Part shown: positions 27,010 through 41,752 of the stretch, one piece after another
How positions within the stretch are numbered: the first letter of the stretch is position 1
Layout: every line of letters begins with the position of its first letter
Assembly (NCBI GenBank): GCA_963777955.1
Contig: CAVZSQ010000019.1
Span: 320,001 to 384,000, forward strand
DNA from: Calditrichia bacterium
GTDB taxonomy: Bacteria > Calditrichota > Calditrichia > JAJRVZ01
Direction: 5' to 3'
DNA length: 64,000 nt
Position numbers and translations under genes: made by a program
Notes under the pieces: model-generated
Seen by the model: the letters and a program-made list of their open reading frames with translations, nothing else
The model's database searches: none
Told to the model about the DNA's origin: nothing

Positions 27010-29253
27010 TCAAACGACCTGTATCTTTCCTGATCCGCTTTTTTGAAACTTCCCTATTTCTGCAGCAGTTATGAGTCCGGCCTGATGCAGCTCGGTGATA
27101 ATCTGCTCTGCTGACCGTGGCGGAATTGCAGCCAGCAAGCCACCAGATGTCTGTGCATCAGCCAGAATATATTTCATGGAATCCGCTATTGAACCATCCC
27201 ACTGCACCCGCGCTCCTGCATATTCTAGATTATTCCTGGTACCGCCGGGCACCATACCCAGATTAATGAAATCTGCTACCGCTCCCATTACTGGAATACG
27301 GGCAGCCGATAACTGCACATCCACGCGACTGGCTACGCTCATCTCAAGCAGGTGACCCAGCAAACCAAAACCGCTCACATCGGTACAGGCGTGAACCCTA
27401 TAGTTTTTCAGAATTTCCGCTGCCGTTTTATTCAATTGAACCATCACTGCTGTAACTTCCTGACATTTCTCCGCAGTCAACAATCCATTCTTAAGTGCGG
27501 TGGTCAGAATCCCCGTCCCTAATGGTTTAGTCAGGATCAGGACATCCCCCGGTTCTGCACCATGATTTCTCCAGATTTGTTTGGGATGCACCACTCCGCA
27601 GACAACCAGTCCGTATTTCGGTTCGTTATCTTCAATGGTATGTCCACCCAGAATTGCTATTCCCGCTTCGCCGGCCACCTGCTGGGCACCCTGTAATATT
27701 TTTTCCAGTACCTCCAGCGCTAAGCGTTGTGAAGGAAATCCAACTAAATTCAGGGCCAGCAGAGGTTGTGCCCCCATAGCATATATATCGCTCAGCGCAT
27801 TGCTGGCAGCAATACGGCCAAAATCAAAAGGATCATCGACAATCGGAGTAAAAAAATCTACAGTCTGTACAATAGCGGTTTGCTCATTGATCTGGAATAC
27901 GGCAGCATCGTCAGCAGTTTCCGTCCCGACCAATATCCTGCGGTCAACCGGCACAGGTAGATGTTGCAGGATTCTCTCCAGAACCTGCGGCTTGAGTTTA
28001 CAGGCGCAGCCCAGCCCCTGCGTAAAATGGGTTAACCTGGGCATTTCTGCCGGGATTTCAGCCACAGCGCCGGTACCTGCCGGAATTAATTTTTTTACCG
28101 CACCGCTCACAATCCGGATAGTTTCTTCTATTTCCCGGCTGGTGGTCATCCGCCCTGTGGAAAACCGCACAGTACCCATAGCATACTCTGCAGGTACCTG
28201 CATAGCCTGCAAGGTCGGGGAAATATCAATCCGGTCTGAATGGCAGGCCGCTCCGGCTGACACGGCGATTCTGTCACCAATCTCCGACAGCAATAGATTC
28301 GCTTCAATATTAGCAAAACTTATACTGAGTGTATTCGGCAGGCGGTGCTCCGGGTGACCATTGAGCCGGAAAGGTACATGTTCTGTTAACTCGCTGACCA
28401 ATCCGTCGTATAGTTGGTCACGTGTGGATTTCAGATTCTCCATGACTGACGGCAGTTCTGCGACGGCAATTTCGCAGGCTTTGCCCAGACCGATGATTTC
28501 GAGCACATTCTCGGTACCGGCACGCCGGTCGTGTTCATGACCGGCGCCATGGATCAACTTTTCCAACTTCACTCCCCGGCGAACATAGAGCACTCCAATC
28601 CCTTTGGGAGCATATAACTTATGTCCGGCCAGCGAGAGCAGATCGACACCAAGTTCATTGACCCGTACAGAAATTTTGCCCGCACTCTGTGCAGCGTCAG
28701 TATGCATCAGAATATTGTGACGATGCGCCACAGCTGCAATTTCCGGAATCGGTTGAATCGTTCCCACTTCATTATTGGCATGCATGATTGTGATCAGGAT
28801 TGTTTCCGGTCTAATGGCCCTGCGGATATCTTCCGGATCGACCCGGCCATATGAATCGACGGGTACATAGGTAACTTCAAATTGGTGTGCTGCCAAATAC
28901 CGGCATACTTCCATGACTGCCGGATGCTCAACCGCCGATGTGATCAGATGGCGGCCCGAACGGTTTTCAGCAAAGGTCTGGCCTTTTAAGGCCAGACCTT
29001 TAAAGGCCAGACCTTTGATGGCCATATTATTGGATTCACTTCCGCCACTGGTAAAGATTATTTCTTCGGCAGCACATCCAAGCAATCCGGCAATCTGCTG
29101 CCGGGCCAGTTCTATCGCCTGGCGGGTCTGCAGGCCATAGGCATGAGAACTGGAAGGATTTCCGAAATATTCGGTTAAAAATGGTTGCATGGCAGCCACA
29201 ACCTCGGGCAGGAGGGGTGTGGTGGCATTATAGTCGAGATAGATAGGTTTCAC
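27010..29253 (-). CDS. selD: Fusion of NifS-type cysteine desulfurase/selenocysteine lyase and selenophosphate synthetase SelD
   Basis: N-terminus DYNATTP, HTDAAQ, GHKLY, GAACHS. C-terminus GLGCACK, DDAAV, TVDFFTP, GGHT, TDVSGFGLLGH, DAQTSGGLL. One uninterrupted 747-aa ORF. Confidence 0.93.
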   Translation of the reverse strand: MKPIYLDYNATTPLLPEVVAAMQPFLTEYFGNPSSSHAYGLQTRQAIELARQQIAGLLGCAAEEIIFTSGGSESNNMAIKGLAFKGLALKGQTFAENRSGRHLITSAVEHPAVMEVCRYLAAHQFEVTYVPVDSYGRVDPEDIRRAIRPETILITIMHANNEVGTIQPIPEIAAVAHRHNILMHTDAAQSAGKISVRVNELGVDLLSLAGHKLYAPKGIGVLYVRRGVKLEKLIHGAGHEHDRRAGTENVLEIIGLGKACEIAVAELPSVMENLKSTRDQLYDGLVSELTEHVPFRLNGHPEHRLPNTLSISFANIEANLLLSEIGDRIAVSAGAACHSDRIDISPTLQAMQVPAEYAMGTVRFSTGRMTTSREIEETIRIVSGAVKKLIPAGTGAVAEIPAEMPRLTHFTQGLGCACKLKPQVLERILQHLPVPVDRRILVGTETADDAAVFQINEQTAIVQTVDFFTPIVDDPFDFGRIAASNALSDIYAMGAQPLLALNLVGFPSQRLALEVLEKILQGAQQVAGEAGIAILGGHTIEDNEPKYGLVVCGVVHPKQIWRNHGAEPGDVLILTKPLGTGILTTALKNGLLTAEKCQEVTAVMVQLNKTAAEILKNYRVHACTDVSGFGLLGHLLEMSVASRVDVQLSAARIPVMGAVADFINLGMVPGGTRNNLEYAGARVQWDGSIADSMKYILADAQTSGGLLAAIPPRSAEQIITELHQAGLITAAEIGKFQKSGSGKIQVV

Positions 29254-37449: not shown

Positions 37450-38193
37450 ATGGCTTTACAACATTTTTTCGAACAGGAAAAACATACCCGCGATTATCTG
37501 TTACCTTATTTTCAGAAATATATTCCCGATCTGCCGCACTGTAAAGTACTGGAGATCGGTTGTGCCGAAGGCGGATTTCTTAAAGCACTGATTCAGCTCG
37601 GGATGGATGCACGCGGAATTGAACTGAGTGCTGCCCGGGTAGCTATTGCTCTTAAACACACTCCCCCTTTACCCGTGCAGGAGGGTGATATCACCGATCC
37701 GCATATCTGCAAACAAATCGGCGCACAATTTGATCTGATTGTCATGCGCGATGTGCTCGAACACATTCCCAATCGGGAAATCACGTTTGAAAATCTGCGG
37801 ACTTTGCTCAGACCTGCCGGCTATCTCTACATCACTTTTCCGCCGAAATACTCCGCCTACGGCGGCCATCAGCAGAATGCAGGTTCAGCGCTAAAATTAA
37901 TACCTTTTATTCACCTGTTACCTGCAGCGGTAGTAAAAAAAATAGGATTCTGGCTGAGGGAAAAATCCCAAATACCCGAACAGATTTTACAAATTTACCG
38001 GAACAGTATATCCATTCGTGAATTTGAGAAACTCTGTGTCAGGTTTGACTTCGCGTTTAAAATCAAAGGATTGTTTTTTTCACGGCCCATCTTTAAAAGC
38101 CGCTATAAACTGCCGGTTATTCGTTGCCCCAATCTGCCCGTGGTCCGCGAATTTTTTGCCAGCGGTTGTGAATATTTACTGCAAAAAAAATAA
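37450..38193 (+). CDS. Class I SAM-dependent methyltransferase
   Basis: VLEIGCAEGG, DVLEHIP, FPP...GGHQQ. Confidence 0.88.
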   Translation: MALQHFFEQEKHTRDYLLPYFQKYIPDLPHCKVLEIGCAEGGFLKALIQLGMDARGIELSAARVAIALKHTPPLPVQEGDITDPHICKQIGAQFDLIVMRDVLEHIPNREITFENLRTLLRPAGYLYITFPPKYSAYGGHQQNAGSALKLIPFIHLLPAAVVKKIGFWLREKSQIPEQILQIYRNSISIREFEKLCVRFDFAFKIKGLFFSRPIFKSRYKLPVIRCPNLPVVREFFASGCEYLLQKK

Positions 38194-39075
38194 TTCAGAA
38201 TCCGGGTCCTTTTCAGCTGCCTGGATTTTAGCAGCTTCCCAGGCTAAAATAACTTTTTTCCGCAGCGGTCCTCCGCCATAATTGCCACTGTTCCCTTCCT
38301 TGCGGATTACCCGGTGACAGGGGATGAGAAATGATACCGGATTGCTGGCAATGGCAGTCCCGACAGCCCGCGCTGCGCCGGGATATCCGATCATGGCCGC
38401 CAGGTCCTCATAGGCCAGTACGCAACCCTGAGGAATACGCAATAGTGCTTCCCAGACCTTAAGTTGAAAATTTGTGCCCTGCAGATGTAAATGAAAGGGC
38501 TGATCACTTTTCCAGGAATGGGGTTGGAAGATCCGTTGCAGCAGTGGTTTCAATTTATCTTCCTGCTCATGAAGTTCAGCCTCAGGCCAGGATCTGCGCA
38601 GCAGGCTGATATATTTTATCCGGTCTCCCACCGCTATAAAATACAGGGCGCAAATTCCCCTGGCTGTGACGGCTAATAAACATGTACCGAAGGGTGTAGG
38701 CAAGAATCCATAGGTAATTTTTAATCCGGCCCCCTGTGCTTTAAATTCTCCCGGAGTGACCGCTTCACACTTTACAAAAAGATCGTGCAGACGCCCGGGT
38801 CCGGATAAACCACTAGCGTAGGCTGCGTCTAACAGGTTTTTTGATTGGCGCAGTACCGTCTTGGCGTATTCCTTGGTCATGAATTGCAGGAAACGTTTCG
38901 GACTGATGCCGACCCAACGCTTGAACATTCTCTGAAAGTGGAATTCACTTAAACCGGCCTGGTGAGCCAGTTGTCCCAATTCGGGCTGCTGGCGGAAATT
39001 TTTGCCCAGATACCTGATGGTTTGTTCGATACGTAAGTAATCGGTTGATTGCCGGCTGAGATCATATTTTTCCAT
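38176..39075 (-). CDS. Ada-like AraC-HTH / O6-methylguanine-DNA methyltransferase
   Basis: LSEFHFQRMFKRWVGISP, GTNFQLKVW, IPCHRV active site. Confidence 0.93.
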   Translation of the reverse strand: MEKYDLSRQSTDYLRIEQTIRYLGKNFRQQPELGQLAHQAGLSEFHFQRMFKRWVGISPKRFLQFMTKEYAKTVLRQSKNLLDAAYASGLSGPGRLHDLFVKCEAVTPGEFKAQGAGLKITYGFLPTPFGTCLLAVTARGICALYFIAVGDRIKYISLLRRSWPEAELHEQEDKLKPLLQRIFQPHSWKSDQPFHLHLQGTNFQLKVWEALLRIPQGCVLAYEDLAAMIGYPGAARAVGTAIASNPVSFLIPCHRVIRKEGNSGNYGGGPLRKKVILAWEAAKIQAAEKDPDSELFFLQ

Positions 39076-39139
39076 GCTTTTTCCTTTCACAATGATCTCA
39101 AACTAAAAAAAGAAAAAATGATAACCAACCCGATTCTTG

Positions 39140-41003
39140 CTATTCGTACAAGATCATATTTTGTACATACAGATCCTGAAAGTCGGCGCGGCCGGCCAAC
39201 TCTACAAAGCGAGTGCTCGCGGCCAACCAGTCAACCTGTTTCAATTGATCCTGATCGAGCAGAATCCTGCGCGCCCCTTCCAGCGAGGCATTCCCGATAA
39301 AATGAATCCGGTTAAGATCGATTGCGGGTACCAACTTCAAATCGACCGCTGTCCGCGGACGGATAAAGTTACCAAAAGCACCGGCCAGATATACATCTTC
39401 GATCGCCAGCGGTTGAATCCCGGCCAATTGGCATAACACTTGCCAGGCCGAAGTGATTGCAGATTTAGCCAGTTGAAAAGCACGGATGTCCGTTTGGGTC
39501 AGATATATATTTCTTTTTGCTCCCTGCAGCACACCTTCAATCAGCAAGGCATGTTCTCCTCTGTACAGTCCCATTCTCTGCCGGTAAAATTCTATTATTT
39601 CCGCAGTATCGAGGTCGCTTTGTTCATTCCATTTCCCGGTCGACTTTATTATTTTTTTCTGTATCAGTACATCGATTAAATGAAATAATCCACTGCCGCA
39701 AATTCCCCGGGCCGGTTCATCATCGATCGTGTCAACTAATAACTCGCTGCCCTGCCAGTGCGCATCATAGATCGCACCTGACTCAGCACGCATGCCGAAA
39801 CTGATAGAAGCTCCTTCCAGGGCCGGACCGGCCGGGGAGGAAGCGGTCATTCGAATTGAATCTGTTTCTACCACCACCTCGCAATTCGTACCGATATCGA
39901 TCAGTAATTTGGATTTCTTATCCTTCTGCCCAAATCCGGCCACCAGCATATCAGCCAACACATCGCCACCTACAAATCCTCCTAAATTTGGTGTAATCAA
40001 TATATTAGCCCCTGTACTGACGGCCAGGCCCAGATCTGCCGCCCGCTCTTTTCTCAACTCTTTAAAAACCGGGGTATATGGTGCCAGAGCCAGTGATTGC
40101 GGATTGATACCAAGAAATAAGTGGTTCATACCTGCATTCCCGCTCAAAGTCATGAGATACACATTATTCGTAGCCACTTGATGAATCTTGCACAATTCGG
40201 CTACCAGACTGTTTATACCCTGGATAATGACCTTATGCAAATGTTCCAAGCCATCTGCCTGTTGGGAAATATAGGTGAGACGTGAAATCAGGTCGGAACC
40301 AAACCTGGCCTGGGGGTTGATCGAAGCAGCGATATCGATCGTTTCCCCCGACAGTAAATGATGCAAGCTGACCACCACTGTGGTTGTGCCCAGATCTATA
40401 GCCAGGCCAAACGCCTGTTCAACCGTATTCCCCCCTTCAACATCGATGATTTCCTGATCCATAACTGTGACCGTAACTTGATAGTCATTTTCACGCAAAA
40501 CTTCAGGCAACCTTCGTAATACGGGCAAAGAAACAGTGGCCCGGATCTGATATTCCCTTTCGATTTCCTCCTGAACCAGTTGAATATCGCATTTTAAATT
40601 CTGCAGACCTTCGGCGACCGGCAATTTTAGAAAGTATTTTTTTACCGGTGGTCGTATCGCAATTTGTTCCGTCACGGATGTCTTTCAAACCGCTCAGATG
40701 GTTCAGTCTGTTTTCATCGGGAATTAATACCGTACTTGACTGGCCGACAATACTCATACAGGACAGACGCCAACCCTGCTGGATTTCCTGGGGTGTGAAG
40801 AATAACCTGTCCTGATAAGTCGGATCCGGGTACCAATCCATAAATTGAACGGCACATTTGCCACAGGAATGGTTGCCACCACAAGGATATAACAGGTGCA
40901 GATTTAATTCTTCGAATACTTTTTTAAGAGAAACAGGAGATGGAAAAGTATGTTTGATCTTGTCTGGCAGGATCTCAATTTCGAGTGCTTTATTCGCTTT
41001 CAT
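39140..41003 (-). CDS. 2Fe-2S + ASKHA ATPase protein (RACo/DUF4445 corrinoid reductive activase family); one +1 frameshift at ~40676
   Basis: N-part PCGGNHSCGKC...RLSC (2Fe-2S). C-part DLGTTT, NPQARFGSD, DIGTNCE, AGPALEG, GICGSG, LAGAFG. Confidence 0.88.
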
Positions 41004-41028
41004 TATACGATTTGAGAACCAGGCTGGC

Positions 41029-41460
41029 CTATTGCTGCTTTTGGCTTTCCGACTTTTTGCTGACTAAGGCCAGAATATGAAGATTGATTAATTTGTTTTG
41101 TGGATCATTTGTATGTACCCTGATGATCTTGTGAATTTTATCTCTCTTATTTTTTGTATTGAGAGATACCTCCACCTTGCCACTGTCACCCGGAACAACC
41201 ACTTCTGAACTCAGAAGTACTGCCGTACAACCTCAGCCGGGCTCCAGGCGGGTTATACGCAGCGTATCATCACCGGTATTCTTGAATTTAAAAACATGAC
41301 CGACCAGGATTCCTTCAGCCAGCTCGCCAAAATTGAACTCTTCCTGATCAAATATTATTCTGGGCGCATGTTTTGCTGTCTGATCGGATTTGGATTGGGC
41401 ACAAGCCGGTAAGGTTAACGCCAGAGCGATCAATAGAATAGTGTTGAATTTATTTTTCAT
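41029..41460 (-). CDS. DUF1573-like lipoprotein; predicted selenoprotein (in-frame TGA = Sec at 41233-41235)
   Basis: Lipobox LPA-C; FKFKNTGDDTLRITRLEPG-U-GCTA...VVPGDSGKVEVSLNT...KIIRVHTNDP. The frame stays open to TAG at 41029 (143 aa). Confidence 0.85.
41201..41218 (-). promoter_or_regulatory. Putative bacterial SECIS hairpin
   Basis: ACUUCUG-AGUU-CAGAAGU starting 14 nt after the UGA; the loop has G at position 2 followed by U. Confidence 0.7.
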
Positions 41461-41752
41461 ATTGTCTCGATTTCTAAAACTTCCAGACTGCTGCCTAATT
41501 CCGAACAGGGGTTAAATCGTTGTTTTAATAAAAATAATTTAGAAAGTGATCAGTTGCAAGAGAAAGATAATCTATCCCCGGCTCCATACTGATGATCAGG
41601 TGATCATGCCGGGAGCTCAGCTATATTTCAGGAACTTGAGATCCAGGTTCAGAAATGATAAATAGTGTTCAGCTTTTACTAAAATAATCCGAAATATATA
41701 GATGAAAACTTTATTTAACAGCACTACCAGCCTCAGCACGAAGGGCATATTA

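Follow-up and report, generated by a model that had tools for sequence, protein, structure and literature searches.

The window, a 64,000-nt stretch of a Calditrichia genome (contig CAVZSQ010000019.1, assembly GCA_963777955.1), carries on its minus strand a short gene whose reading frame is interrupted by one TGA codon. The gene is flanked by a frameshifted RACo-like gene and by a divergent PAS/GAF hybrid histidine kinase. The features considered below are as follows.

41029..41460, minus strand: gene of 143 codons (41460-41032) and TAG stop (41031-41029), very probably encoding a selenoprotein; the frame runs on past the TGA and encodes one DUF1573 domain
41398..41460, minus strand: N-terminal signal peptide, residues 1-21, MKNKFNTILLIALALTLPACA, located by alignment with ortholog signal peptides ending in ...AQ
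41077..41355, minus strand: DUF1573 Ig-like domain, residues 36-128, from the PF07610 match, the AlphaFold2 model and a fold search
41233..41235, minus strand: in-frame UGA, U76, first position of the U-G-C motif, placed by the ortholog and homolog column
41200..41219, minus strand: SECIS-type hairpin, located by comparative pairing and encoding L-L-S-S-E-V
27010..29253, minus strand: NifS-like/SelD fusion gene of 747 aa with a selenophosphate synthetase part at 27112-28038 (TIGR00476, 405.1 bits)

Reading frame, domain and export

The list of open reading frames and their translations places a 75-aa ORF on the minus strand at 41460..41233, ending in ...TRLEPG-TGA-GGT-TGT-ACG..., with the TGA at 41235-41233. 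Past this codon the frame continues for 67 further codons (GCTAVLLSSEVVVPGDSGKVEV...HTNDP...QKQQ) until the TAG at 41031-41029, and the translated read-through product comprises 143 residues. These coordinates and translations agree with the initial annotation, which had described the 75-aa ORF, its TGA, the 67-codon continuation and the 143-aa product. Translation with table 11 instead yields the 75-aa ORF and a separate 57-aa ORF starting with GTG. That standard annotation would truncate the gene, as anticipated there, is seen in P0006, a 76%-identical relative labeled 'hypothetical protein' that stops at ...RLEPG. The table 11 output, the annotation of P0006 and the frequent use of TGA as a stop in this genome speak for a true stop, in which case the locus would be a pseudogene, a gene cut short at 75 aa or a pair of separate small genes.

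The domain content argues against such a stop, since a single DUF1573 domain spans the TGA. In a Pfam profile search, residues 36-128 of the read-through protein match positions 2-93 of the 98 in PF07610 with 77.6 bits (E 7.4e-22), above the gathering score of 26.1. The two halves also match separately, the N-terminal one with 30.7 bits (profile 2-39) and the C-terminal one with 29.6 bits (profile 43-93); the TGA therefore splits one domain at the first Cys of its C-G-C motif, which is where the initial annotation had located it from the letters of the motif. An AlphaFold2 model built on a 30-sequence alignment (pLDDT 91.3, pTM 0.77) adopts a β-sandwich and places U76 in the loop that joins strand 67-73 to strand 78-82. 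Foldseek relates the model to PapD-like/ASH Ig domains, including OCRL (3qbt), HYDIN (2e6j), VesB/VesC and 2qsv of Porphyromonas gingivalis. No bacterial structure comes closer than the last of these, an uncharacterised protein, with a Foldseek E of 6.4e-07, TM 0.65 and 20% identity. A sequence search of the PDB with the protein returned nothing at E up to 1, and the fold search, yielding generic Ig domains and one uncharacterised bacterial protein, gave no catalytic clue.

The N-terminus is consistent with export. The model contains a helix at residues 2-21, and nearly all orthologs start with a classic signal peptide ending in ...AQ(D/E/S), with which the LPACAQS of the window protein (ACA|Q) aligns. 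The occurrence of signal peptides throughout the orthologs supports the earlier proposal that the product is exported. Its further assignment as a lipoprotein is doubtful. The lipobox consensus at the end of a lipoprotein signal peptide reads L-[ASTVI]-[GAS]-C, with an invariant Cys, and in the candidate L-P-A-C the Pro at -2 falls outside it. The same string is found only in the same-genus ortholog, the P-A-C-A-Q string is likewise common only to these two proteins, and the other orthologs carry ordinary signal peptides whose ...AQ(D/E/S) ends align with ACA|Q. Judged from these sequences, cleavage by signal peptidase I at ACA|Q appears at least as likely as processing at a lipobox.

A mistake in sequencing or assembly, with TGC or TGT as the true codon, would be a further explanation of the TGA, and the surroundings of the gene lend it some color. 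The RACo-like gene just downstream (39140-41003, minus strand), which combines a 2Fe-2S ferredoxin domain with the RACo linker, middle and ASKHA domains, is divided between two frames in overlapping ORFs, 40503-41003 (Fer2) and 39140-40675 (RACo), and looks like the product of a one-base frameshift, through an assembly error or as a pseudogene. In addition, a public contig of 259 nt (X1) is one base shorter at 41487, within the leader that precedes the start codon, reflecting either strain variation or a base inserted in the assembly. The initial remark that the apparent errors of the window are +1 insertions fits both the split gene and the missing base, as far as these are errors at all. Apparent errors of this assembly are indels and not substitutions, and a public contig of 151 nt (X1), which may derive from the source sample of the window itself, reads the TGA as well: it covers 41202-41352 with zero differences and bridges the codon by 31 nt. 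The TGA is also found in 34 separately assembled genomes, which leaves a wrong base call with a negligible probability. Among public sequencing runs, none contained at least half of the sampled words and coverage of the selenoprotein gene was patchy; a single RNA run covers only 40839-40985, within the neighboring gene and not the selenoprotein gene.

Decoding of the in-frame UGA

The genome of the window encodes a complete selenocysteine (Sec) pathway, with tRNA-Sec, SelA, SelB and SelD all above curated cut-offs. Rfam RF01852 places the tRNA-Sec at C19:19356-19448 with 65.4 bits, above its cut-off of 47, and the same locus is reported by ARAGORN as tRNA-SeC with anticodon TCA. In a profile search, selA (507.4 bits) and an adjoining selB (318.1 bits) were located on contig C26, and SelD, which had been noted near the gene beforehand, is encoded at 27112-28038 of the window; the machinery on which the initial reading depended is therefore present. 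The N-terminal part of the SelD fusion is a NifS-like class-V aminotransferase of the cysteine desulfurase / selenocysteine lyase type, and its SelD part reads GLGCACK, the Cys form, without an internal stop. Proteins of this fusion type have thousands of homologs of similar length, and some JGI entries name them 'cysteine desulfurase NifS/selenium donor protein'. Among homologs of the fusion in the window, those with Calditrichia or Caldithrix names attain only ~60% identity, a level matched by entries named Eisenbacteria and Chloroflexi, and the closest ones are 70-94% identical. For formate dehydrogenase alpha as a second selenoprotein, the search of this genome gave no hit that reached the cut-off, nor any internal stop. 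An Ada-like gene at 38176-39090 (minus strand), in which an AraC-type HTH is fused to a 6-O-methylguanine DNA methyltransferase domain, also has no internal stop; its methyltransferase family is among the known selenoprotein families listed in reviews.

The UGA might alternatively be read through without Sec, by near-cognate insertion of Trp or Cys or under a reassigned code, and in favor of this it can be said that the evidence for selenium in the product is indirect. Of the 1870 open frames in the genome that span 300 codons or more, 648 end in TGA; being an ordinary stop genome-wide, this codon offers no room for a reassigned code as an explanation of the in-frame TGA. The remaining evidence on this point comes from the relatives of the protein.

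Orthologs were searched in six frames with stops read through, at E <= 1e-5 in the family of the window and at E <= 1e-8 in the class, which equals the whole phylum in the genome collection used (n = 86 genomes). Within the family, 8 of 10 genomes gave matches, each with exactly one TGA. Across the phylum, 50 of 86 genomes matched, in 51 rows. The best 36 of these rows are small proteins, 35 with one TGA (in 34 genomes) and one, from G039, without a stop; the remaining 15 weaker rows are stop-free two-domain proteins of ~230-250 aa. All 35 TGA-bearing orthologs read U-G-C-T or U-G-C-A at the same column, which excludes a chance occurrence of the codon, with the reservation that the Sec forms are related to one another within a single phylum and do not agree fully independently. 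Their protein identity to the window sequence is 31-62%, and past the UGA the residues T79, A80, L82, L83, S84, S85, P90, G91, G107, K111, N118 and D119 show little or no variation among 30 aligned sequences. Conservation on both sides of the UGA, as required of bacterial selenoproteins, is accordingly visible in the two domain halves and in the 30-sequence alignment. At the UGA column the G039 ortholog has Cys, as do all the Cys-form homologs (73 of 73). Homologs with TGA or Cys at this position and conservation downstream of it, two features on which the initial reading could have failed, were both found.

The distribution of the two forms follows that of the Sec machinery. The selA gene is present in 71 of the 86 phylum genomes and in 33 of the 34 that carry the TGA form, the exception being G026, an assembly that is 87% complete. 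Family f4 has selA in none of its ten genomes (G037-G046), and the other families mostly keep it. The complete genome of G039 belongs to f4 and is the only carrier of a Cys-form ortholog, which reads CGCTAALLDN and has no hairpin. Co-occurrence with selA and a Cys form in f4 are the pattern that a true Sec/Cys pair would be expected to leave, and f4 itself looks like a lineage in which the Sec trait may have been lost along with replacement of Sec by Cys.

Two genomes hold unusual Sec-form genes. G047 carries two copies, at C4:133527-133916 and C2:4115-4429 (L028, L059); in the second, the protein reads UGCTATVLSSGE and the stem is a variant, GUCCUG-AGUU-CAGGC. G006 (L026 865-1896, minus strand) encodes a 344-aa protein with a signal peptide, a U-G-C DUF1573 domain and two further Ig-like domains; the shared hairpin is absent after its in-frame TGA, and no convincing alternative stem-loop was found there.

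Bacterial SECIS elements obey a spacing rule relative to the UGA. In the window, the hairpin begins 15 nt after the UGA and 21 nt separate the UGA from the loop. Its core consists of a 5′ arm CUUCUG (41217-41212), a loop AGUU (41211-41208) and a 3′ arm CAGAAG (41207-41202), and the window sequence adds two pairs to these six, reaching 41219/41200. By itself the hairpin is not unusually stable, with z-scores of -1.44 (63 nt) and -1.30 (48 nt) and 19 of 200 shuffled sequences folding equally well in both cases. Comparison of 40900-41600 with Rfam, allowing E-values up to 10, returned two chance-level matches and no SECIS family. The core occurs 7 times in the genome, against ~8 copies expected by chance, and only the copy in the selenoprotein gene has a TGA 21 nt upstream.

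The comparative evidence is of a different order. Codon use and pairing were counted in 32 Sec forms (the outlier L026 was excluded, and L045 and L048 were not in the count, the hairpin being present in L048 too). The codons CTG-AGT-TCA occur in 32 of 32, and the core forms six pairs in 30 sequences, five in one and four in one. Pair 21-32, scored over 33 rows, is U-A in 25, C-G in six, U-G in one and G-U in the outlier L026. A Leu codon CTT pairs with a Glu codon GAA in the 25 U-A rows, and in five of the six C-G rows a double change has taken place, from Leu CTT to CTC together with Glu GAA to Gly GGA.

Because the hairpin encodes the conserved peptide L-L-S-S-E, a control with the same peptide was needed. 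It was provided by 73 Cys-form homologs encoding CGCTA[AVS]LLSS, from Geopsychrobacteraceae, Ignavibacteria/Melioribacteraceae, Bacteroidota and others. Among them every one of the six Leu codons and of the six Ser codons is used, and CUGAGUUCAG occurs in 0 of 73. They form 0 to 5 of the hairpin pairs, mostly 2 or 3, and never six (0 of 73), most of them having Lys where the Sec forms carry Glu or Gly. The mean hairpin energy is -7.5 kcal/mol in Sec forms and -2.7 kcal/mol in Cys forms. On this comparison, the hairpin is kept constant at synonymous sites in UGA forms only, and the comparative evidence identifies a stem-loop shortly past the UGA with a G in its apical loop, as is characteristic of a SECIS. 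The bacterial SECIS of the Escherichia coli fdhF type is a stem-loop soon after the UGA, inside the coding sequence. The element of the window resembles it in these respects and in having G (and U) in a small apical loop; it differs in its shorter stem of 6-8 bp, its 4-nt AGUU loop and its lack of a match to an Rfam model. The apical-loop G of bacterial SECIS elements is mentioned in the legend of Fig. 5 of PMC1976440.

These results bear on both remaining alternatives. Under a true stop, the conservation of the downstream half at the protein level in 35 orthologs (31-62% identity) would be unexpected, as would a column that always holds TGA and never TAA or TAG, and the hairpin and the co-occurrence with selA would be left without explanation; such a stop is extremely improbable. 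Read-through without Sec is very improbable: homologs show Cys at the column and not Trp or Gly, the TGA form tracks selA (33 of 34 genomes) with the Cys form occurring where selA is absent, and a hairpin is conserved after the UGA.

The locus is thus very probably one gene for an exported selenoprotein of 143 residues with a DUF1573 domain (OS_HP2-type), a degree of confidence that concerns selenoprotein identity and not biochemical function. The core of the initial annotation, a hidden selenoprotein, stands on the spanning domain, the Sec machinery, the orthologs, the hairpin and the selA co-occurrence. In the corresponding mechanism, SelB with Sec-tRNA(Sec) would recognize the hairpin on the translating mRNA and insert selenocysteine at codon 76, the signal peptide would then take the selenoprotein across the inner membrane, and the Ig-like β-sandwich would present the U-G-C site in the loop ahead of strand 78-82. 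Both SelB-dependent decoding at the hairpin and signal-peptide export would follow what is established for such systems and are well-supported predictions.

Relation to known selenoprotein families

The novelty implied by the initial annotation does not survive a check of the selenoprotein catalogues, in which the family is recorded as OS_HP2. It was named in 2007 by Zhang & Gladyshev (PMC1976440) from two Sec sequences, one from the delta1 and one from the delta4 Olavius symbiont; the accessible text of that description gives no Cys homologs at that time and reports a hairpin after the UGA for all its new families. The table of the 2008 GOS paper lists 'OS_HP2, pfam07610, UxC, 2, 2, 354' (PMC2398784), and OS_HP2 appears as pfam07610 with UxC/UGC also in the 2022 and 2026 catalogues (PMC9312934, PMC13188914). 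A DUF1573 selenoprotein family with U-x-C has therefore been in print since 2007/2008, and the gene of the window adds a member to it. The protein displays both features by which the literature defines OS_HP2, a PF07610 domain and Sec first in U-x-C (UGC). Literature on Calditrichota together with selenocysteine was not found, and review supplements may list more members.

Among NCBIfam models, the best match is NF041425, 'OS_HP2 family (seleno)protein', with 85.3 bits, below its curated cut-off of 100; each of the 30 aligned relatives also matches this model, the lowest E-value being only 1.5e-25. As NCBI delimits NF041425, the window protein accordingly falls outside that subfamily and is a relative of it. 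Compared by domain, motif and description, it shares with OS_HP2 the PF07610 domain, U-G-C at the position of C-G-C and the hairpin after the UGA; it differs in origin, the original members coming from deltaproteobacterial worm symbionts while the clade of the window fills another phylum. With Cys-form DUF1573 proteins (the 73 homologs and 2qsv) it shares the Ig-like domain, and with the 73 homologs also CGC-T-A-x-L-L-S-S, apart from the Sec. Differences from these proteins are that they carry Cys and not Sec, have no hairpin and vary freely in their LLSS codons, and that many are two-domain proteins of ~235 aa.

Function and gene neighborhood

In the accessible literature on DUF1573, no function was found for the family. 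A thioredoxin-fold oxidoreductase (Dsb/Trx, with CxxC or UxxC) was considered and rejected, the fold being a PapD-like/ASH Ig β-sandwich and the motif U-x-C. As membership of the thioredoxin type fails, any redox role for the DUF1573 selenoprotein would rest on analogy and not on membership. Sec usually stands in place of a catalytic redox Cys, and C-X-C sites in other proteins, such as C-G-C in Erv2 and C-P-C in Mia40, are redox-active. The window protein resembles Erv2 and Mia40, as an analogy of mechanism only, in having two redox-capable residues one residue apart (separated by Gly in the window protein) outside the cytoplasm; it differs in being an Ig-like β-sandwich, another fold with no sequence relation. 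On account of the motif and of the rule that Sec replaces a catalytic redox Cys, we tentatively read the product as a periplasmic selenol/thiol redox protein, in which U76 and C78 could quite possibly cycle through a selenenylsulfide.

The motif could instead bind a metal such as Cu, Hg, Zn or Cd in the periplasm, and the protein would then serve as a selenolate/thiolate chaperone or scavenger and not as a redox catalyst. Such a role would suit a two-residue motif on an exported, non-thioredoxin fold, and metal-handling families (mercuric transport, cation ATPase, YHS domain, UxxU metal-binding protein) are found in the selenoprotein catalogue; moreover, no redox partner is conserved near Sec-form or Cys-form loci. 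Against it, no metal-resistance or transport genes adjoin the gene in the window or recur at orthologous loci, and in the alignment His, Met and Cys are nowhere fully or almost fully conserved except in the motif. Metal binding, the main alternative to the redox reading, is possible on this evidence, if rather unlikely.

Gene context decides neither the redox nor the metal reading, as no consistent partner emerged at Sec-form or Cys-form loci. Only two neighbors recur at the 31 Sec-form loci, MsrB, which is lineage-specific, at 9 of them and a MatE gene at 8, and the recurring neighbors at the 73 Cys-form loci are housekeeping genes, namely TsaE, a TsaD-family gene, carboxyl transferase and a PglZ response regulator. 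The 31 loci include 20 from f3, and at 9 of these 20, and in f3 only, the MsrB gene (SelR domain), with an N-terminal signal or anchor, lies directly downstream on the same strand (L034 1948-2529, plus strand; L037 1896-2525, plus strand; and seven more f3 loci). This exported-type MsrB reads SGSGWPSF, with Ser at the position where many MsrBs carry the resolving Cys. It is conceivable, though distinctly improbable, that DUF1573 proteins form an unrecognised class of Ig-fold periplasmic selenol/thiol oxidoreductases in which the Sec protein would donate electrons to the exported 1-Cys MsrB; if true, this would constitute a selenium-dependent repair system for oxidised periplasmic proteins. Several observations run against such a donor role: the linkage with MsrB is confined to one lineage, the genome of the window has its own MsrB without a signal peptide on another contig, and housekeeping genes surround the Cys-form homologs of other phyla.

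As a discovery the gene matters little, U-x-C DUF1573 proteins having been catalogued since 2007/2008. Its clade scores under the NCBI cut-off, and at least one public annotation (P0006) cuts the protein short, so automatic pipelines may miss the gene phylum-wide. The switch from Sec to Cys in the selA-less family f4 would be a neat example of trait loss, and the near-fixed hairpin of Sec forms, set beside Cys forms encoding the same peptide, provides a natural control for the constraint that a SECIS places on codon choice. Being small, well-folding and exported, the U-G-C protein is a tractable target for the function of DUF1573.
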